A DNA stretch of 60,082 bases, filler included, from Dugesia japonica (taxonomy: Eukaryota): the NCBI GenBank assembly GCA_001938525.1. It is 6 parts of 6 records of this genome, joined end to end, with 100 filler letters (N's around TTAATTAATTAA, not from the genome) between each part and the next. Parts side by side here need not be neighbours in the genome. Positions count along the whole stretch, not along the records: positions 18,695 to 28,182 come from MQRL01597211.1; 5 more parts are not named here. The stretch is one strand, 5' to 3'. The notes beneath the pieces are model-generated. The model searched no databases. It was not told where the DNA came from and saw only the letters and a program-made list of their open reading frames with translations. The position numbers and the translations under genes are program-made. Positions 18,695 through 59,557 of this stretch are shown in pieces (position 1 is the first letter of the stretch; each line of letters starts with the position of its first letter).

Positions 18695-20647
18695 TTTTTA
18701 AAATTAATTCCGTTTGTTGATCATTTAATATTGTTGTATTACTTTCATTATTCAAATTACAAATTATTAAAACGTATTTATATTTATCAACCTCTCGATA
18801 TATTTTTATTGAGTTAGAATTTCTTTCCAGCAGACCTTTGTTAATTTCCATAACTAGTCATATTAGTAAAAAAACGCTATTCTCATCAAACATTTATTTA
18901 TGACAAAGTTTCTATGAATTGAAAAAACGGAATTAGAATAGTTTTAATATTCAAACAAATATGCGCAATAATTATTTTAATTATTTTTNAGAAATATTTT
19001 AAATTTCGAGAACTTTATAAATATTTTAATTGCGTATACAAATTTGAAATCAAACAATTCAAATATCATTCTCACCACCCCCTTCTTTAAGAAATCTTCT
19101 GATCTTTTCAACATTTCTTTTCATTGCTCGATCCAGATCATCTCGAATCAGATATCTTCGGTCATGTATCTTTTTTACTATTCTGAATGGACCTAAAAAA
19201 CAATACTGATCCTTATTTCTTGTTTCCTCCTTGATAAGCATTGCATTTCCAATAGCAAATGTTCTCGTTTTCAATCATCTCGTTTTTAATTTGCCCCCTA
19301 TAAGATCTTCGCGTGACACCATGCATTGTAAACATGCGCCATATGCCTGCCTTGAAAGAAAATCCGCATTGCCATGTTTTTCGCCTTTCTGATACTGTAA
19401 ATCAAATGTCTAATTCACTTAGGTAATTGATCCAATTTTGATACTGTGCCATTATAGGTTTCTTCGTTGTTAACATACACGTAATCGCTTTATGGTCTGT
19501 TCGTAGAGTAAATCTTCGTCCATATAAGTAGTGACTGAAATGGTTGCAAAAAGAAAATATCGCCAGCAGCTCCTTTTTGTTATATAATACCCCCAATTTG
19601 TGGTTAATCATTGCGTGTGATACATACGCTGTCACTTTATCTTGTCCATTGTTGTCAATTGGTGATAATACGGTACCAATTGTATTGTAGCTTGCATCCG
19701 TATTCAGTATGAATTCTCTTCTGACATCCGGAAACACTAAAATTGGTGGCTTCGTTAACGCTTCTTTCATANCTCTGAATGATTGTTCGCAGGTCTCTGT
19801 TCATATTAACTTCTTATTATTTACGCTACACAGTTTTTCTAATTCTCTAGCCTTCTTTGCGTAATCCTTTATGAATTTTCAGAATATCCCCATGAAATTC
19901 CTTAACCCTTTCACGCATTTTGGCCTTTCGTATGTTTGTTTAGCAACCAATTTTGCTGGATAAGTTTGAGCTTGACGTGGTTGCCATATTAGCAAGAAAA
20001 ACGCTATCTTCACCAAACATTTATTTATGACAAAGTTTCTATGAAATGAAAAAACTGAATAAGAATAGTTTTAATATTCAATTAAATATATCGCAATAAT
20101 TATTTTAATTATTTTCTTAAAATATTTTGAATTTCAAAAACTTTATAAATATTTTAATTGCGCATATAAATTTGAAATCAAAAAAATTCAAATATCATTC
20201 TCACAAGTCGTACAGTATATTTTTTATTATCAATTCTACCTACCTTTTTGAAGATATAATGAAGTCATTATTGATATACTTCTCTAGATAAGTCATTGTT
20301 ATAGGATAAGTCACTTCTCGTTCCAAGTTTTTGTATTTAACAAATTGTTTATTATAATTTAATGTATCAACTATTATTATCCATGAAATTTTATATTAAC
20401 TTTTATATATTTAAGTGAGTTTCAAAAGATATGAATTTCGTCACTCAATGATTCTATTTCAACGAGAGTTTTAGTTGCACTAGTTCAAACTCTTATATTT
20501 GTTTGATTTCTCCAAGTTTCATTACTTTCCGCCACAAAATAATGAATATTAAATTCATAATTATTATTTGGCTTCAAATTTCGAATAACCACTTTTTAAT
20601 TTTTATTATTTAGTTCCAAAATTGTATTACTTGTATCATTTAAATTT
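18695..20647 (-). pseudogene. Fibronectin type III-like pseudogene exon split by an LTR element
   Basis: After an acceptor ttttcag: NLNDTSNTILELNNKN*KVVIRNLKPNNNYEFNI (FN3-like LxPxxxYxF). Removing 18861-20205 and one TSD restores the frame KKYTVR-LVMEINKG.. Stops and a frameshift are present. Confidence 0.45.
18861..20205 (-). mobile_element. Internally deleted Ty3/Gypsy LTR retrotransposon
   Basis: LTRs 19987-20205 and 18861-~19077; PBS TGGCAACCACG 19976-19986; PPT AAAGAAGGGGG; TSD AGTCA/AGTCG. Internal RT connection/RNase H (TDAS, KELLAI, RTDHKA) and integrase GPF tail. Confidence 0.9.
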
Positions 20648-20714
20648 CTGAAAATACACATTTCATTTGAAAAACCATTAAAATCTTACAAGATTGTCCT
20701 ACGCATAGTATAAA

Positions 20715-21070
20715 TCTTTCCACTAACCCATCGGTTTGCGGATGATAAGATGACGTTGTTAATTTTATAATATTATACAAATCTGCAATTGCTTTAAATA
20801 AATCACTTATAAAATTAGTTTCAAAATCCGTTAATAATTGTTTTGGCGTTCCATAACAAAATACAATATTTTCTATAAATATTTGAGCTATAGTCTCTGC
20901 TTTTTGATTAGGAAGCGCAAATACTTCCGGCCATTTAATTAAATAATCACAAAATACTAATATATATTTATTCTCGTTTTCTGTTTCTGGTAAAGGTCGA
21001 ATAATATCCATTGCTGTCATCTCCATAAGTGCTAATAGCACATTCACAGGTTTAAATGGAGCAAGACGGG
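20715..21070 (-). mobile_element. Gypsy/Ginger-type integrase core fragment
   Basis: AMDIIRPLP, KYILVFCDYLIKWPE, GTPKQLLTD, YHPQTDGLVERF (DDE core). Confidence 0.85.
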
Positions 21071-21485
21071 TTGATGTAGGTTCAAACAAACCATTAAAAA
21101 TATGGTTATCACGTGATCAAAGTAAAGCAATTAAAAAACCAAAATATAAAGTCAGTGACCATGTTAGAATCTCAAAAATAAGTGTATATCCATTCATTAA
21201 AAACTTTGATAGTAATTGGAGCGATGAAGTGTTTTGAATAGCGAAAATCATTACTAAAAACATCTGGTCATGTATGTAATTAACGATTATGAGAATAATA
21301 TCATACAAGGAAAATTTTATGAGCAGGAATTACAAGTCATTCCAATTCCTACTATATATAAAATCGAGAAAATAATAAAATCAAAAGGAACAAAAAAGAA
21401 TAAACAATATTACGTAAAATGAAATCGATATCAGAAACCTACTTGGATATTAGCATCACAGTTAGATAATAATGACATTGAATAA
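21070..21485 (+). pseudogene. Polinton integrase C-terminus with chromodomain
   Basis: PKYKVSDHVRISK..F.KNFDSNWSDEVF*, frameshift, then YVINDYENNIIQGKFYEQELQV..IYKIEKIIKSKG..QYYVK*NRYQKPTWI. Confidence 0.85.
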
Positions 21486-22513
21486 TTTCTATACACTTTT
21501 ACCTAGTAATAGATGTCTTCTTATTCATCCGAATAATAATGCTAATAAATTCATTGTTAAGCTACAAAATCCGATTTATATGAATGATAGTTGGGAATTA
21601 TCATTGTCGGATTTTACCTTTGTATATCAAACATTGCCATTATATAGCAAGTCTAAAATTTAATACATGTCTGCAAGAAATATATCAAATAAAATAACTG
21701 TTACAATTAATCACAAAAAAGAATCCTTGAATGTAAGTAAAAATGAAAATAATAATGTTTATATATCGTATAATGGTTATTTAGCTATTCATTGTGAATA
21801 TCCATATGTTGTCATATTTTAAAATGAAACAAAACAAATCACAACAAAACAAAAATGAAAAGATTTGGATTCCCATATAAGACTAAGAAAATGGGTCCTG
21901 AATATTATAATAATATTTTTTCAAATTTAAAAGAAGATTCTCCAATAAAATTTGTAAAATTTAAAATAGAATATACTCAAGTAAAGTATCATACTAAACA
22001 GTTGAAAGATGAATTATACATAACAGAAATTGAAAAATTAAGTTCATATTTTACAGAAAGCGCTTCTGAATTATTTAATACGATTAGTCTTAAAGCAAAT
22101 AATCTGTTTCAAATATCACTAAAAATGATATCAAAACTGTTACATTCGATAAAGTCATTGGGATTAGAAAAAAAACAATATTCACAATAAGAATTGAAGG
22201 ATGGTATATTGCAAGGTATTGAAATCCTAAAATAATTAAGTTGCATCAACAAATGCTTATCTATAGTAGTATTGTGGAACCTATAATTGTAGGAGATGTT
22301 AAAGTTCCTCTTTTAAAATCAGGATGGATAGAAAAACATGAAACTGATGAAGCAGTACAAATAATTGTTGATCATTCAATGTATTTACCGATTGCAACAA
22401 CATGTATAACCAATATAGAAATTAATATTCGTGATGATAACGGAAAATTAATCAGGTTTCCAAAAGATTCAAGAACACATTTAACTTTACATTTTCGAAA
22501 AACAGATGTCTAA
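21472..22513 (+). pseudogene. Polinton/adintovirus minor capsid (penton) protein, disrupted
   Basis: N-terminus FYTLLPSN..HPNNNANKFIVKLQNPIYMNDSWELSLSDF; C-terminus IYSSIVEPIIVGDVKVPLLK..YLPI..IEINIRDDNGKLI.F..HLTLHFRK. Broken into track ORFs 21472, 21855 and 22241. Confidence 0.75.
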
Positions 22514-22961
22514 TCTGGATATTATAACATTGTATAGTAACAGCCAAGCAAGCGGAAAATTACCTTACTTTGTAGGAAAACAGTATGGTTCTGGCTGGTT
22601 ACAAACAATAGGTAGGTTTGCGCTTCTTATTCTTAAGCGTATTGGTAATTTTGGTAAGAAAACTGCTCAAGATGTAATATATAATAATGAAAAAATATTA
22701 CCAATATTGAAATCTAATGCATTGGCAGAACTTAGTGATGTAGTGTCTTTGTTACCTAGTGGAGTAACTAATATGATTTCAAAAGTAGCAAACATTTTAC
22801 CATCCAGTATAACCAATAGAATTCAATCGGAAATAAGTAATATGATAACAAACCAACTGCAAACAATTAATAAAAAGCGTAAAAAATCCAATGCATCACG
22901 TATAAACAAACGAATGAGAGGACATGGAAAAAAGTTTGAAAATGAGTTATTTGAATCTTGA
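22506..22961 (+). CDS. Polinton/adintovirus small virion protein with QxGxG motif and amphipathic helix
   Basis: YSNSQASGKLPYFVGKQYGSGWLQTIGRFALLILKRIG plus a basic tail KKRKK..RMRGHG. Overlaps the penton stop; the last codons derive from the adjacent mariner. Confidence 0.65.
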   Translation: MSNLDIITLYSNSQASGKLPYFVGKQYGSGWLQTIGRFALLILKRIGNFGKKTAQDVIYNNEKILPILKSNALAELSDVVSLLPSGVTNMISKVANILPSSITNRIQSEISNMITNQLQTINKKRKKSNASRINKRMRGHGKKFENELFES

Positions 22962-23400
22962 ATGCCTTAAAATAAAGATCCTCATGCAAAAGTCTTAATA
23001 ACGTCGTTCTTGGAATGGATAGTTGTTGTGGATAGTTGGTTTCTCACTCAAACTACAGCTTACAGCTGCAATATTTGTTTTCGAGCGGCCACCTTTATGA
23101 TATTCTTGACGTTTTTCATCTTTTATCGATCCACTTTTTATAAATTGTTTGATAACTTTTTGAATTGTCACATGTGACGAATAACTTTCGTTTCCATATT
23201 AAAACTTAAATTAAATCGGCATAACTTTCGCCATACTTAAATAATTATTTACCATAAATGCTCTTTGTTCTATGGTATAACGATTCATTTTAGAAGCCGC
23301 ATGAATTACTTTTGCTTATTTAACAATTATTGATTTAATAAAACAAAACATAAATAAATGGAATTAAATTTAAAATGTAACCTTAAATTAGAACACCCTG
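22945..23400 (-). mobile_element. Tc1/mariner transposon 5' fragment
   Basis: TA|CAGGGTGTTC terminus at 23400; peptides MNRYTIEQRAFMV, GSIKDEKR, GRSKTNIAAV, LHEDLYFKAFKIQ. Confidence 0.8.
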
Positions 23401-23419
23401 TACATCCTAGCAGTAGGGG

Positions 23420-24170
23420 ATTATTTATCAAAATTTCCGAAGCATTTGCATTAAAAGATCAAAAAGCAGCGACAATCGCTACAGTGTTAGTAGACAAAGT
23501 ATTCAGCAATTATGGACCTCCAAAGAAAATTTTAATTGATCAAGGAAAGAATTTTATGAGTGAATTAATGAAAGAAGTTACGAGTTTCTTTAATATTTAC
23601 AAACTACGGACTTTAGCATATCATTTGTGAACGAACGGAATCAAAGAAAAATTCAATCAAACTTTAAAAAGAATGCTATCGAGTTATGCTTCATAAGATC
23701 AAAGAGAATGGGACAAATATTTAAATTTATGTCTTTTTGCATATAGGGTGGGAGTACATCCGACAACCAGAGAAACACCGTTCAGTTTAATGTATGGCAG
23801 AGAATGTATTGTGCCTATTGATATGGAATATCAACCACCAATTTCACAATACATGGATGAAGATTATTATGTGACAGGCATGAAGGAACGAATGAAAGAG
23901 ATGTGGGAATTGGCAGAAGTAAATGCAAAATTTAGTCAGGAAAGTTACAAGGAATTATATAATGGTAAAGCAGAAGCTCATACGTTCAAAAAGGGAGATC
24001 TAGTGTTAGTAAACAAACCAACAATCGATATTGGAAAAACGGAGAAATTAAAGAGACCAAACAAAGATCCATTTATGGTAATCGAAATAACCGCATCAAA
24101 TCTGAAGTTTAATTAGGAAAACCGTTAAAGAAACCAAGTATCTTACATGTATCAAGATTTAAATTAGTAG
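23420..24170 (+). mobile_element. Ty3/Gypsy integrase (core to GPY/F tail), disrupted
   Basis: YGPPKKILIDQGKNF, AYHL*TNGIKEKFNQTLKRML, EWDKYLNLCLFAYR, TPFSLMYGR, FKKGDLVLV, LHVSRFK. Confidence 0.9.
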
Positions 24171-27100
24171 CCAAGGAGACCAAGACAAATAAAGAAAATC
24201 TAGAAGACGCAGAACCAGAAACGAGTAAAATAAAATGAGTTCGATTTAAATTAGACAAGCTTGATGATGAACAGAAATATTCCATCAGATCAAGACATCG
24301 TGCCATGACAATAACAACAAAACCAGTAACAGACATTACTACTAAAGAAGCGAACAAAGAAAGTAACTAGTGTAAAAAATGTAAAAAGATGCGACCAGAA
24401 ACAGTATCATTGATAAAACGTCAATTGCTAAAGATGTGTTATCAATGTTTACGAACGACACAAGATAAAATTGTAAATGGCGATACCGAGATTAATCGAG
24501 TATCATTATAAGTATGGAGAGAGAAAACCGATATCAAAAGATGGGCTTGTCTACAGTCCATGGAAACAATCATAAAATTGGATATTTCGAAGGAAAAGTA
24601 TAAACAGTGGTGTAATAATTGTATAACAAATGCGAGACAAATAATGAATAGTGAAATCAGATGTGTCTACAATCATTTAACAGGCTTATCAGCAGCAAAA
24701 GCACTAAGAGTAAATATTTAATTACAACAAAACAGATTATGAGACATTTTCAGCTAAATAATGATTGAAAAAACTATAATAATTGATTAAAATAACTATA
24801 ATTGAAAAATGACGAAATATACTTAATAAATATTATCATTCAGTGTAAATTGGAATAATTCAAGAGGATCGGAAATGCAAAAATCCAAGATGCAGACGAT
24901 ATGGTATGAAAAGACACAGATCGGCAGACAATTGAAAACTACTGTGTAAACCATGCTTACAAATTTCACAGAGAATTACAATGAGACAACAAGAGAAATA
25001 TTTAATAAACCGAATCGACTCGAGATTGAGTGAAACAAGGAAGCGCATTTGCCATGGAACTTAGTGGGAAATTGAAAAATTTTCAAACATACGAAATGTC
25101 TAATTGACATGATAAATGCCAGGAAATTATATGGAAGCTGTCAAATTAACTTGTGAAAAGAGATTTAGGTATCGTGGATAAAAGTGGAACAAAAGAAAAG
25201 AGAGCTATAAAATAACAAATCCAACTAGAAGTTAGATGCAATAAAGAGCGAATAGAAACTAAGATTGTATTAACCGAAAACCAATTAAAAGAAGGATGTC
25301 TGAAATGTAAGATAAAAATGGGACTACAATCAAAAGAAGCTGAAGAGAAAATATGGAATATTATTAATATGAATCAAGAACATCCAGAAGCCAAGAAGTG
25401 TAATCGATGTGTATCAAAGAAACCAACTAAATGCATCGTTAGTGGCAGAAGACTTAGAGAATTTATGTAATAAATGATTTCAAAAGACATAAATCAAGGT
25501 TAAAGACTCAATAATAATAATATCATGAAAGAGAAGTTGTTTAAAAAACCACTCGGTACAAGATAATCAAGAATATCTCAGATGAAAAACGAAAGATGAA
25601 GTAATCGAATTACCAATACCAAAAACAGTGTTTCGGAAGTTATGTTTGACACGTACAGAAATAAGGCGACATCAATTAGAGAAAACCATGTACGAAGTAT
25701 ATAAAGTAATGGCTCAACGGAAAATGGATGAGCAACCTTATCGTATCCAGTGACAGCCTCGAATCAACGAGGACGTCAATTTTCATAAAAAAAGGGCGAT
25801 TTGGAGAAACAAAACGAAGCACTAATAAATCAAGTACAACGGGAAGTAGAAAATGTAGTAAATAAGAATCATAAGATGAAACAGACAAAGTAAGCACATC
25901 CGCTCGATACAGAGACTTTACGAGATCGTTTATAAAAGATAATTAACGAAACACAAAAATTAATGATCTACCAAGATTAATTAAGAAAGAATTACAAACA
26001 AATATCGACGAGGACATCGAATTTTTTAAATCAGGAGATGATGTGATGAATTTCAGAGAAGACACAGATACAAATTTTAAGGAGCTGAGCATGTCACAAG
26101 AAGATGGACGGAAAATCAGAACAATGTGGAGACAATTTGAGACATTTACGGAAGTTGAAAATCGAGACCGTCACTACTTTTCTTATAAACATTAAAAGTG
26201 CAATGTCAGAAGTTATTGGAGAAATTAAAAATTGAACAGATTAAAGAGAAAAGCGATTAAAAAGAGTGTATTAAAGAGCCGAGACAAAAACAAAGAGCAA
26301 GGAGACAAAAAAGAAAACGTTAAACAGAAAAAAAGGCGACATACACAGAATCAGTGTGATACAGGCACAGAAATAAAATATGAGGACGACGACAGTGATA
26401 ATGATTATGAAAAACTGATATTAACAAAACAACCAGAAACGACAGACTGGCTCGAAACAATTCAAATGGATAGAGCAAATCTAATGAAAACGCGGAACGA
26501 CAGATCAAACTGGTTTGGGACGACATGGAGTGACAGAGAAAATGATTACGATACGGAAAAGGAAAGAAACATTATCATGAGTTGTGAAGAGGACTCCGAA
26601 GGAGTGTGACTTCAATGGTAGAGAATTTACCAGGATTAAAAACAGAAAGTGCAAAATGAAAAGAAATATTAAAAGTGGAAACAAAAGAAAATCGACGAAG
26701 CAATTAGAAAGATAGAGGGGACTTCAAATATGATACAGAAGATCAGTAAGATATAACAAAATGATGCGAAGAGTATCCCGAGGGCTTACCACAACAATGG
26801 TTAGAAATTCAACAGAAATGGCAACACGACTAGAGCTATCAAACATGGAAGCAAAAAAGAAATTAAAATAAAGCGTGAGGAACTCGAGAAAATAGAACCA
26901 AAGGAAGAAATGAGACAAAATATTCCATTATCAGAAACACCGGCAAAATATGACAGTGGAATTTACGAGAAAATAACAGCGGATATAATTGAGGCAATTT
27001 ATGTGAATGAGAAAAAGGAGGTATTAGTAACTAAAAAGCCATTACTCGGAAGACAATGGCAGAGAATTGTGTGGACATGTATTGCATCGGTACCGATAAT

Positions 27101-28182
27101 AATATTCATAGTGTGTATAATAGCAATAGTGGCAATGGCATGACCCACAAAGATTTTAATTCAAGCGAAAAAATAATATGAAATAAACGAGACTATAACC
27201 GCAAAAAGTGGAACGAACAAAACGATTAAAATGATGGATAAATGGTTATATGTATTACTAGCATTAATAAGGATAAAGGTAATTAGAGGTAAAAATACGT
27301 GGACAACGGGACCGGCAATAATAACAAATCAGAGTAAAAATAAGAATAACAAGTATTGGACATTAATACTAGCAGCAGCTATAATGACGTCAATAAAAAT
27401 GTCATTAATCTTNATAACGACAGCCTTAAAAGGAGAAAAAGCGAATAAACAAAGAGACATCGAAATGGGAACACCAAGAGAAGCAAGCCAAATACTGTTT
27501 TCAGGAAATCTGTGGATATATATGATAATAAATGTGATAACAATACACACAGTTAATGGTGAAGAATGCTATGACTACGAAGACGTACATACGGAACATC
27601 GAGTATATATAACAATATTAGAGGCGGAATTTCAAAGCAAAACAAGGCGATATACCTTACAGCAGAAGAAGTGCATTTGGAATCCAGATAAATTGGGCAG
27701 AAAAGTTTGTAGACTTATCAGTGTTGCAAGGAAGAAAACAAAACGTGAGAATCGGACATTATTTATCACTTCAAGATTGGAAAAATGGTGACTTATTACT
27801 CAATTATAATTGGAGCGGCAATCAGCAAGAATTAAAATATGGAATATGGTTTAAAGTGAAGGTTATGATAGTGTGGGAGCTACTACCAGATAAAACGACA
27901 AAACAAGTCATCAAAACAAGAATTACAACAAGGATAACAAGTACAAGAGAAACGTCAATAAGGCCAATCAGTAAACCGAAAACGACACGAGGTTGAGAGG
28001 CGACAAAACCAGAAACAATAAAAAAGAGTAATGTAAACAATATCACAAAAATCAATACGACAAGTAAAAGAGAAATAGTCGAAGTGAATCAACACAAAAC
28101 TGGAATGAAAACAATTGAAAAATTAAAAGTGCCAATAAGAGTGCTGAATCAGGCAGAAAACGATATTTTCGAAAGACTAATG
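24170..28182 (+). pseudogene. Long post-integrase coding extension of the Gypsy element (CxxC-rich region, TM cluster, env-like tail), truncated by contig end
   Basis: Continues in the frame of LHVSRFK/KYSIRSR into CKKC, CYQC, WCNNC. Later CKNPRC, CKPC, CLKC, CNRC; hydrophobic segments at 27060-27560; Thr-rich stretch near 27890-28060. Uniformly A-rich plus strand, no splice signals noted. Confidence 0.55.
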
Positions 28183-28282
28183 NNNNNNNNNNNNNNNNNN
28201 NNNNNNNNNNNNNNNNNNNNNNNNNNTTAATTAATTAANNNNNNNNNNNNNNNNNNNNNNNNNNNNNNNNNNNNNNNNNNNN
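28183..28282. other. Synthetic contig spacer
   Basis: 44N-TTAATTAATTAA-44N. Confidence 0.95.
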
Positions 28283-56363: not shown

Positions 56364-58010
56364 TTATAAAAAAAAAAGCTCACAATATAATGGTAAATGA
56401 TCACTTGGATGAAATTTGTTGGGGAGAGCTATATTTTCCAAAATATCAGTTCGACTAGGTGTTGGACAAGCATGCTCAACTTTGATTCGACAATTTTCAA
56501 TTATAATATGATCCAACAAACCGACATAATCAGGTGTAAAATTTGTAAATTCAACTACATCTTTATGGACACTTTGCAAATTAGAAATAGAATGCTTCAA
56601 TTTAAACATTTCATTTTTATATTTAAAATCGATTTCATTATCGAAAATAAATTTAATCGATTCATCTTCAAATGATGCATTAAAATCTCCACCGATTAAA
56701 CAGCAAGCATCAACAAATTCCTGTTTTATTTCTTCAATATGGTATAAAATAATTGCAATTTGAAATAAACGAAATATTTCGTATTCTGGATGAAAGAATA
56801 AATGACTATTTGATAAAATCAATTGTTTTCTATCAGACAAATCCACAGTTTCCAGAACACAACCGGTCATGCATTGGCCCATCGATTGCCATTTTTCCAA
56901 TAAATCAATCCTCTGTAAAAATGTAAGCATTTTATTATATTTTTCTTTATTTGACTCAATCTCAATTGATAAATTTTGAATGGAAATATTTTTAATTAAT
57001 TTAAATTTATTTGTTCTCCAAAATATAGCTTGGCCTTCAAAATTATTTTTCGATTTTATTTGATAAATTCCATCGTAATCGTGCAATTTTAAAATTGGAA
57101 ATAAAGTTCGTAAATAGAATGATTTATCGACTTCTTGCAGGAATATTAAATCTGATTTTTGTTGGATTAATTCATTGAGAATTAAACATTGCCGATAATC
57201 GTGTAACAAAAATTTTGAATCACAATGGCGATATAATTTATTTTTCGCTTGCGGCGTATCTCCATAAATATACGACAAAATATTATATGTACACATTCTA
57301 AATGTTTTCCCAGAATCAGCAATATTAATATTTATACTATTCAACTGCATAGCCAATTGATATGAAGTTTGAGGAAGTTTTTCAACTGGGTGTGTCGAAA
57401 TAACTTTGAACACTTGCTGAGAAATATTAATGCAGGAAATAACTTCCAATTTAATAAAGAAATTTTCATATTCATGTGAAGGAGTGAAAAGTAATCCAGA
57501 ATGGCATTTAATCCATTCATTAGATGTTTTCGATTTAGCTTTATACCAGTTAAAAGTAAACATTTCATTTTCGGCATTTACACTGTCAATAAGAGGATAA
57601 ATAGGACAATTAACCATACAAATCTTAGGAAGTTGACAATGTTTGATCCATGGTGGATTGATATAAGCAGTATATAATGTTTCATTAACTTTCATTGATA
57701 TACTAGTTGATAACAAATTTTTAACTGTTAATTTAGAAGTTTCTAATTGACAATTGGTGATGCTATCCACTACTTTAATTTCACAACTATCAATAATAGG
57801 ATGATTTTTATTTTTCTTGGTACACTTCCTATATTTTATTTTGGAAATTTTTGCAGTTATTTTTTTAAATACTGCATCCAAAGATTCATCTATTGGTCGA
57901 AGAAAACTATAAAAATAGGTAACTGAATCTGAATATGTATATTCAAATTCCAAAAGAACTTCATTAGATGAATAATCTGAATAGTGCAAATATAAAGCTT
58001 TGTTATTCAT
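56364..58010 (-). CDS. PDE12: 2',5'-phosphodiesterase 12 (CCR4/EEP-family deadenylase)
   Basis: 548 aa single-exon ORF; EEP motifs TYNIL, LQEVD, NSHLFFHP, GDFN, FTNFT..LDHI, ALPN..PSDHLPL, plus a PDE12-type N-terminal region (PIYP, FNWYK, FTPS..IKLE). Confidence 0.9.
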   Translation of the reverse strand: MNNKALYLHYSDYSSNEVLLEFEYTYSDSVTYFYSFLRPIDESLDAVFKKITAKISKIKYRKCTKKNKNHPIIDSCEIKVVDSITNCQLETSKLTVKNLLSTSISMKVNETLYTAYINPPWIKHCQLPKICMVNCPIYPLIDSVNAENEMFTFNWYKAKSKTSNEWIKCHSGLLFTPSHEYENFFIKLEVISCINISQQVFKVISTHPVEKLPQTSYQLAMQLNSININIADSGKTFRMCTYNILSYIYGDTPQAKNKLYRHCDSKFLLHDYRQCLILNELIQQKSDLIFLQEVDKSFYLRTLFPILKLHDYDGIYQIKSKNNFEGQAIFWRTNKFKLIKNISIQNLSIEIESNKEKYNKMLTFLQRIDLLEKWQSMGQCMTGCVLETVDLSDRKQLILSNSHLFFHPEYEIFRLFQIAIILYHIEEIKQEFVDACCLIGGDFNASFEDESIKFIFDNEIDFKYKNEMFKLKHSISNLQSVHKDVVEFTNFTPDYVGLLDHIIIENCRIKVEHACPTPSRTDILENIALPNKFHPSDHLPLYCELFFL

Positions 58011-59557
58011 CCCTATTTTACGAGAAAACTTTTTAAGAAAATATTACTTTACTTTCAAAAATAATTATTTTTTTGAAATCGATGACAAAAATTGATGTTA
58101 CTTTACAAATTAAATTTAGAGCAACTAATATTAAATGACCTTTAAATATACAAACAATTTTAAATTATTTTAAAAATTTAAATTATGTCCAATATTTCTT
58201 ATTTCTGTAATATTTTAAAACAAAATTTCTCAAATATTTAAACTGACTTAAATTGAATAATAAAGACTTTTACTTTTAACTCATGTTGAGTAATTGGGTG
58301 TATTGAGATATCATAAATAAGATAATTTATGACAATACACATTTTATCAAATGTTTATCATATATAAGATATTTTTTGAATGAATAATATAATAAATAAA
58401 ACTTTCAAATATTTAAGTTTTGAAAAACATAAAGTCTTGTAGGTTTTGCCATAGTAAAGGAGATTTTTATTTTGTTAGTAACATTTTTAAAAATGTTTTG
58501 GAAAGTTTTAATTGTATGGGCTGTTGTTTTGGATATAATCAATGATTTGGTTTAAAGTAGCTTATATTTTATTAATGCTTTTTTATAATGTACAATTTCG
58601 ATAGAGCTTATCCTCTTAAAATAATTTTAAATGTTTAATGACTAAATTAAATTTGCTCATAAATTATTACCAAAAAAGCTTTAGTGATAAATAGTGCTAA
58701 TATTGTTTTACAAAAACCTTTATCGTGACAATACTTATACAAAATAGTGAATCTGAAACATGGAAGAATTAAAAAGTTAAATAATAAAAAAGAAGTTTTT
58801 ACTAAATTATAAAATATTATTTATTTATCTATTTAATTAAATTAAAATATAAAGTAAATCGAATTCTATTATATTTAAGTTTTATAAGTAAATTATTTTA
58901 CTCAAAAAAATCTTATATGAATAGTATAGGTACCTTAAATTCAGTTTTCAAATTGAACTAGAGTATAAGCCGTCAAAATAGCGATTCTTAGTTGTCGAAA
59001 AATTTTAATTGCCTAAAAATTCCACAATGGTCTAAAAAAATATACTAAATTTTATGAATTAAAAAAATGTAATAAAATGTTGGATCGAATTATATAAATT
59101 TTTTAGCTTTTTTTTAACTTAGTGTTTAATTTAAATTGGTTCAAGTATAGATTTTCTAAATTTTGAAATTTTTCTGGATTAAAATTATTGAACTTCAAAG
59201 CCAAAGCGTTATTTCATTATTAAAATTTATAAAATTTTTTTCGAAATTTAATATTTATTTTCAAAATTTGCTGAATTTGTAATATTTTCAAAGAAGTTTA
59301 TATTCTTAATATTGTCACACATATATATCTCGGAATTAACTAAGTCTTCATTAAACTTAGTAAAAAGAATAAATTATCAAAATACATATTAAACAATAAT
59401 CAAAATTTACAAAAAAGAAATTTTACAATTAAATAAATATTATAATTAGGGCAATTTTTGTCAATAAAGTCAATTGAATCTTAAATTGCTCAAAACTTAT
59501 TATTAATATGTAAAAACATCTTTGACTACATAAAAGTATTTTATTTTAAAATTTATA

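Follow-up and report, generated by a model that had tools for sequence, protein, structure and literature searches.

Coding sequence extending past the integrase of a decayed Gypsy-type retroelement in Dugesia japonica

Large invertebrate Gypsy elements with cargo behind pol, as well as giant polyproteins, are already in print (PMC6431247; PMC5408684; PMC13524379), and how env-bearing invertebrate retroelements reach new cells is described as unexplained outside Drosophila (PMC13524379). Here we describe a window of 60,082 nucleotides of Dugesia japonica DNA (assembly GCA_001938525.1), one contig of which (MQRL01597211.1, positions 18695-28182) carries at its 3' end a decayed copy of a repeated Gypsy-type element that codes far past its integrase into unfamiliar Cys-rich and membrane domains, as an earlier note on this DNA had proposed.

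Several described systems share parts of this layout. The planarian giant Gypsy element Burro/GYPSM1, decayed fragments of which have been described in Dugesia japonica, resembles the window element in that a giant polyprotein combines several domains, with parts that are zinc-finger, coiled-coil-like and env-like, but places env between gag and pol, before the protease (PMC6431247); none of the Burro-type domains AIR1, Smc, MATH, BIR, BCL2, ankyrin and RING was detected by Pfam in 11+8 broken pieces of the window. The Platyhelminthes GAG-ENV-POL errantiviruses (PMC13524379) are likewise large invertebrate elements that combine a Ty3/Gypsy pol with membrane proteins. Compared by description, they differ in that a gB-type env precedes pol and that, in the available text, only chromodomains are described behind integrase and the word fibronectin has 0 occurrences; the window element, unlike them, has about 1,100 extra Cys-rich, charged, multi-span codons between integrase and surface module. 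Bdelloid rotifer long terminal repeat (LTR) elements also carry varied cargo behind pol, including transmembrane (TM) proteins once named env on weak features, although their third open reading frames (ORF3s) are separate and of 210-600 aa, whereas the window extension runs for at least 1,300 codons (PMC5408684). The env that follows pol in Oikopleura Tor elements, like the predicted product of the 3' part of the window element, is a membrane glycoprotein that cannot be clearly traced to a virus; that of Tor3b/4b carries seven conserved Cys and an F-X-G peptide and is cleaved by furin ahead of a C-terminal TM segment, features not seen in the visible part of the window element (PMC4402516). 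The sORF2/FAST-like fusogens (bioRxiv 10.1101/2025.03.14.642691) are ORFs of 60-210 aa with one TM segment, an N-myristoylation motif and an ectodomain of 10-50 aa, and do not match the window membrane region, which contains several hydrophobic spans and forms part of a far longer coding stretch. In the literature covered, a zinc-finger, multi-span, surface-protein tail of more than 1,300 codons behind integrase is not described; Repbase and the GitHub ORF set of PMC13524379 lay outside that coverage and may bear on novelty.

Coding origin, copies and domains of the extension

The roughly 4 kb behind the integrase derive from plus-strand coding sequence. From 24170 to the contig end (4,012 bases), the best plus frame of each 300-nt block gives 32 stops in all, against 69.2±5.0 in 500 dinucleotide shuffles, none of which was as low (0/500), and the minus strand shows no depletion (36 stops against 33.1±4.0). 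The A-rich strand bias remarked upon in the earlier note is borne out, with a skew of 0.24-0.43 over 24000-28000 compared with 0.21 in the integrase core and 0.04-0.09 upstream. Every peptide which that note quoted is present in the sequence, including LHVSRFK and KYSIRSR (24275-24295), but its statement that one frame carries them throughout does not hold: the integrase frame shifts near 24110, and at least three frames are used thereafter. A single frame, interrupted by stops at 24236, 24368 and 24509, covers LHVSRFK through WCNNC; a second holds CKNPRC and CKPC, and a third CLKC and CNRC. There are further shifts, several of them between 24730 and 26800 and one near 27600-27640, together with scattered stops. 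The longest stop-free stretch is 204 codons, and a patch at about 24720-24840 is dense in stops in all three frames.

The integrase, whose opening codons at 23401 are YILAVGDYLSKFP, reads as a DDE integrase of the Ty3/Gypsy LTR retrotransposons, and the element occurs, as such elements do, in dispersed, diverged copies. Its best relative, P0004, which has the domain order RNase H-integrase, is 45% identical over 229 aa (E=5e-56); a frameshift-tolerant alignment of the integrase extends to 24193, and the Pfam family rve is matched under the cut-off (E=6e-4).

The extension is a diverged repeat family that is joined to integrase in other copies, and not a host gene. All 15 depth bins over 24095-28182 are repeated, at a summed contig depth (which is no copy number) of 1,393-10,886 in DNA run X2 and 533-4,972 in X6, with near-identical single contigs at 6-22. 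Over 26850-28182, 242, 305 and 292 contigs align in three DNA runs, and 141, 177 and 164 of them are less than 90% alike. Gap-free copies about 82% alike bridge the integrase end to CKKC and CYQC (24121-24418, 55 differences in 298 nt; 24121-24479, 64 in 359 nt), while others cover the membrane region (27228-27540, 60 differences in 313 nt; 27253-27545, 57 in 293) and the last domain and stalk (27628-27824, 37 differences in 197 nt, ~81% identical; 27854-28114, 52 in 261); over the second Cys-rich block the diverged copies align with 6 gaps. Divergence among copies is transition-biased and gap-poor. A spliced host gene, or copies ending after the integrase, had been named as outcomes that would overturn the proposal, and neither was seen for this family among the DNA-run contigs. 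Within the window no part of the extension occurs a second time, and raw RNA reads reach a depth over it of 0-0.14 in run X8 (6% of the run) and 0-2.2 in X9 (25% of the run), those of X9 being mostly partial and less than 90% alike.

This copy is dead: it is not in one frame, and two stops of its membrane region, at 27141 (directly behind the first helix) and 27174, are absent from most other copies. Since other copies differ at them, over 68-98% and 95-99% of the depth, these stops are mostly private to it. Variant sites spread evenly over codon positions (8/9/8 and 6/5/4, among 40 of 236 variant rows listed), which fits neutral decay of this copy and is uninformative on frame.

Table 1. Features of the contig end and its flanks, in window coordinates.
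Feature	Position	Strand	Remarks
Decayed Polinton/Maverick-like fragment	21042-22961	+	Integrase C-terminus, weak chromodomain match (E=0.017), then small-capsid-like and GSGWL-type ORFs
Tc1/mariner-like transposon end, transposase N-terminal helix-turn-helix	22962-23400	-	CACCCTG|TA junction; not part of the Gypsy element
Gypsy-type integrase, catalytic core to C-terminal domain	23401-24200	+	5'-truncated; frameshifts near 23440 and 24110; two stops
Linker with KYSIRSR	24201-24370	+	By eye; matches the motif RYPLRS (P0004) / KYNLRPR (L001) ahead of their in-frame extensions
Cys-rich block I, Cx2C-x18-Cx2C then WCNNC	24371-24730	+	Same frame as integrase end
Cys-rich block II, CKNPRC, CKPC, CLKC, CNRC	24840-25460	+	Over at least two frames
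Long charged region	25460-27065	+	33-44% K/R/D/E in stretches measured; several frameshifts; no family match
H1, strong predicted TM helix	27066-27140	+	4 K/R, no D/E upstream
Loop carrying N-glycosylation sequons (three), H2 (short), H3 (moderate), charged loop	27141-27509	+	H2 at 27243, H3 at 27354
H4, signal-peptide-like segment ending V-N-G	27510-27560	+	By eye; 15-residue Kyte-Doolittle 1.75
Predicted extracellular domain, ~105 residues, Cys-poor	27561-27900	+	Broken near 27600-27640
Thr-rich stalk-like stretch with two sequons	27901-28182	+	Ends at contig end
Assembly linker	28183-28282	.	44 N, TTAATTAATTAA, 44 N; five such linkers in window

Behind the linker (Table 1), Cys-rich block I (CKKC at 24371, CYQC at 24437, WCNNC at 24608) holds three CxxC motifs in 206 residues (p=0.0014 by shuffling) and is likely, from these motifs, to bind zinc, although matches to zinc-ribbon families all fall below cut-off (best E=0.0045). 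In block II (CKNPRC at 24876, CKPC at 24945, CLKC at 25297, CNRC at 25399) the excess of CxxC has p=0.20 and 0.028. Within the charged region PF24926 is matched under the cut-off (E=6e-4 on 25556-25800). A SAM-like reading of 25950-26130 and retropepsin-like DSG/DTG words were both discarded, being without Pfam support.

Homology searches with the extension came back blank. A word-index protein search gave 0 of 2,158 candidates for the P0002 query (longer proteins) and 0 of 224 for the P0001 query; phmmer with one frame of 24840-28181, the query comprising the stretches that code in that frame and so leaving Cys block I, CLKC/CNRC and the last domain outside it, gave 0 matches at E<=0.001 among 1.84 billion representative proteins. 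The best ESM Atlas values, 0.86 and 0.80, were at lead level or below, the first query being probably partly off-frame. Viral contigs gave 0 matches to the extension, tblastn of three of its frames against all 82 comparison loci reached E=0.082 at best, Pfam and NCBIfam gave nothing above cut-off, and PDB sequences gave E=0.82 at best. Because the searched collections are poor in animal transposon proteins, such blanks are no proof of novelty.

The membrane region and terminal domain

The four hydrophobic segments listed in the earlier note are all present but unequal, and only one is a strong TM segment: 19-residue Kyte-Doolittle maxima are 3.13 for H1, 1.09 for H2, 1.91 for H3 and 1.54 for H4, and the hydrophobic core of H2 spans only 9 residues. 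H1-H2 aligns with H3-H4 (p=0.004 by full shuffle, 0.022 by a class-preserving shuffle that keeps hydrophobic positions, not significant at the DNA level), and an old internal duplication is possible. With a topology model of three spans, in which H1 leads out, H3 in and H4 out again, 6 sequons fall in 272 predicted luminal residues and 1 in 690 predicted cytosolic residues (Fisher p=0.003), a post hoc comparison whose stretches were drawn after the sequons had been seen.

The domain behind H4 had been described as Cys-containing, then Thr-rich. Its Thr-rich part stands, from about 27900, but its Cys residues were probably read off-frame past ~27635: the frame that holds them closes at 27789, an alternative frame without Cys is open over 27622-27993 and, apart from one stop, from there to the contig end, the ~81%-identical copy over 27628-27824 aligns gap-free, and the matches of 10-12 contigs break off at 27635. 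This last module rather resembles a small, beta-rich domain carried by a Thr-rich stalk. Its strand motif LKYGIWFKVKV is fibronectin-III-like, a hint only, the pattern having been chosen after it was seen; a fibronectin type III fold finds no Pfam, PDB, Atlas or hhalign support for this domain, and the fold models are unusable.

Relatives, mechanism and rival explanations

Relatives of the integrase offer a guide to what may follow it. From a comparison set of 82 loci, 17 were read for cargo, chosen for long downstream ORFs, and 6 of the 17 carry a membrane-type ORF behind integrase. A quick integrase tree of 78 rows, from which 8 of the 82 loci were left out as their matches were too short, groups the window integrase with L001, L002 and P0004 at an SH-aLRT of 92, below the starred threshold, which lends the grouping moderate support. 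L001 (2-5876) is an intact-looking Gypsy 3' half in which the integrase frame goes on past KYNLRPR to encode a signal peptide, a pair of ~90-residue domains, a stretch rich in T/S/N and a TM helix; downstream come a RING ORF (445 aa, E=3.5e-7, 3 cluster members) and an ORF of 717 aa without a Pfam match. In P0004, residues 575-1003 carry Pol in frame past RYPLRS into two retropepsin domains with a C2H2-like motif between them. L002 is uninformative, with a stop 27 codons past integrase and 297 bases left. Because L001 and P0004 continue into different domains, the post-integrase slot in this group holds differing in-frame cargo. Further loci extend the picture: in L010 (2324-11410) a 2,276-aa ORF continues past integrase into an env-like membrane protein, and two deoxynucleoside kinase ORFs and a RING ORF come after it; L029 (5551-9089) has an env-like ORF and then an ankyrin-repeat ORF behind pol; and L037 (3529-5364) has behind pol a 612-aa Cys-rich, charged ORF with five CxxC and no Pfam match, which shows no similarity to the window extension. 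The slot may thus be regarded as a cargo bay, filled by a protease pair (P0004), a surface protein and RING (L001), or env and kinases (L010). A second Gypsy integrase fragment in the window, at 20712-21062 (-), is 57% identical to P0004 over 116 aa and reads as a further family of this integrase group within the genome.

The last domains of the window element and of L001 share the same layout and, by eye, a fibronectin-III-like strand motif, although no test supports their homology or, in either of them, the fold, and Foldseek with the L001 model gave nothing at E<=0.001. Since the two extensions have no sequence similarity, the tie between them rests on position and layout only.

Taken together, the account we favour, and hold tentatively as a whole, is that the copy is dead and belongs to a repeated Gypsy-type retroelement whose coding sequence goes on for at least 4 kb past integrase, likely as a Pol tail ending in a membrane region and a signal-cleaved surface glycoprotein predicted to serve attachment rather than fusion. 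In active copies the extension would form one ORF with Pol, cut off by the element protease near the KYSIRSR linker, a step to which we give slightly better than even credence. Its zinc-binding and charged domains would be cytosolic and perhaps regulatory. With good probability, H1 would enter the endoplasmic reticulum membrane, leaving the sequon loop luminal, H3 would return and H4 would act as an internal signal, whereupon host signal peptidase would free a type I glycoprotein with one beta-sandwich-sized domain, a Thr-rich stalk and an anchor beyond the contig end. This glycoprotein, on a reading we lean towards by a little, would tether particles or producer cells to their neighbours, while any fusion would be due to a gB-type env encoded separately, ahead of pol, as it is in the flatworm GAG-ENV-POL elements; the membrane spans would also keep Pol at the budding membrane.

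Several observations weigh against this account. No gag, reverse transcriptase (RT), env or LTR of the element lies on this contig. The stops at 24236, 24368 and 24509 are not among the 40 of 1,106 variant rows listed and, among the contigs listed, none spans the whole extension; for these reasons fusion to Pol in active copies is something we infer. Both single-sequence folds were unusable (pLDDT 37.6 and 37.5). The luminal sequons taken alone, 6 against 2.9 expected by composition (p=0.045), are barely above chance, and the loop between H2 and H3, with 6 K/R and no D/E, is basic, which would suit a cytosolic position and a topology other than this one. Finally, the extension aligns with that of L001 at shuffle level (score 48 against 46.2±6.5, and in another test 48 against 37.5±6.0, with 7 of 100 shuffles as high), and hhalign gave 3%.

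A possible though lesser alternative is that the extension is a row of separate accessory ORFs, encoding zinc-finger, charged and membrane proteins and expressed from spliced or internal transcripts. Cargo ORFs do stand behind pol in L001 (RING), L010 (two deoxynucleoside kinases, RING) and L029 (ankyrin), rotifer elements have diverse separate ORF3s (PMC5408684), and the stop-dense patch at ~24720-24840 could be an intergenic gap. What speaks for one continuous tail instead is that gap-free diverged copies run over the integrase-Cys junction, that the strand bias is uniform and the membrane-region stops private, and that the two nearest relatives with post-integrase sequence both continue in frame.

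It is unlikely that a true envelope fusogen, a diverged known type or a new one, begins in the 3' membrane region and has most of its ectodomain beyond the contig end. The post-pol position, signal-like segment and sequons of the region would suit such a protein, only ~200 residues are visible, and gB-type ectodomains are described as able to carry two flanking TM domains and no furin site (PMC13524379). TM, sequon and cleavage features alone are, however, insufficient to call an env, as PMC5408684 warns, and the env-like label given to this part in the earlier note is not supported in the sense of a fusogen. No strict furin site (R-x-[KR]-R) occurs in the coding frames of 26850-28182, and the ~200 visible residues behind H4 contain one Cys and turn Thr-rich early; they show neither the hallmarks of an F-type (class I) errantivirus env (furin site, fusion peptide, Cys set) nor those of an HSV/gB-type (class III) env (conserved cysteine bridges, five-domain ectodomain). 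Nor is there a Pfam, PDB or library match, and five env-like ORFs of related elements (L010, L012, L029, L041 and L043, of which L029, L041 and L043 were typed class III by eye only) align with the extension, frameshift-tolerantly, at shuffle-level scores, against 563 for the integrase control.

Less probable again is that the 3' part, from ~25700 or ~26850, comes from some other repeat, or from a viral or host fragment that was captured, lying inside the Gypsy copy or next to it. The contig upstream is a mosaic of other elements, depth drops to 13-60 at 26850-26984, and listed contigs bridge only some junctions and in no case cover the whole stretch; yet strand, A-rich skew and stop depletion are the same throughout, every bin is repeated, and there is no terminal repeat, poly(A) or splice pattern. 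An origin of the extension as A-rich 3' sequence that does not code, or as a host gene that is spliced and single-copy, is highly improbable, for while no homologue was found and A-rich DNA yields long pseudo-ORFs, the stop depletion is not reproduced by shuffles that keep local dinucleotide content (0/500), the sequence is repeated with transition-biased, gap-poor divergence, and a 25-residue TM helix is improbable at 45% A.

Behind integrase, a conserved membrane cassette for which no homologue was found is an additional candidate for an attachment component in env-bearing invertebrate retroelements. A bolder reading, which we regard as rather doubtful, is of a Gypsy lineage whose Pol carries a tail of more than 1,300 residues processed in the manner of a flavivirus polyprotein, into zinc-binding domains, a multi-span block and a signal-peptidase-released glycoprotein of unfamiliar family that would serve cell-to-cell spread, as attachment partner of a gB-type fusogen or as a new entry protein. 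This copy is dead and cut at both ends, and post-pol cargo and giant polyproteins are known in kind already. The abundance of the family, together with the many RNA runs publicly available for the organism, opens it to study from natural copies.

Surroundings of the element

Six contigs, set end to end with 100-base linkers between them, make up the window, and its DNA is AT-rich, animal-like and dense in decayed mobile elements. The AT content, AAT microsatellites and very abundant Maverick-like DNA would fit a planarian flatworm. Since the contig stops at 28182, at a linker, the 3' end of the element lies outside the window; the absence of a polypurine tract or LTR after integrase, reported in the earlier note, accordingly holds for the visible part and is limited by the contig end. 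On the other side, the Tc1/mariner-like end meets the integrase start at a TA and occupies the place of the element's 5' part on the contig. As the integrase starts directly after it, the gag, protease, RT and RNase H of the element are not on the contig. The terminal inverted repeat at this end we take to be of Tc1/mariner type; a DUF4817 helix-turn-helix match on the minus strand of the same interval is weak (E=0.1).

Upstream of it, the Polinton/Maverick-like fragment has a summed depth of up to ~600,000, with RNA reads of run X9 at a depth of 20-30 on both strands; its ORFs are presumably of the small-capsid-like and GSGWL types that we name them after. A decayed Gypsy RT/RNase H fragment lies at 19070-19960 (-) (RT_RNaseH_2, E=2e-25), with a ~200-nt repeat on both sides of it (18870-19057 and 19997-20185). 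Elsewhere in the window, a short decayed Gypsy element at 38500-42620 (+) has gag zinc knuckles, RT and integrase, and a ~71-nt direct repeat at its bounds, the two copies 3,996 bases apart, represents possible LTRs. A host exon at 46088-46300 (+) encodes an SH2 domain (Pfam SH2, E=1e-13), which we take to be SHC-like, and a 559-codon ORF at 56364-58043 (-) with an endonuclease/exonuclease/phosphatase domain probably belongs to a non-LTR element.

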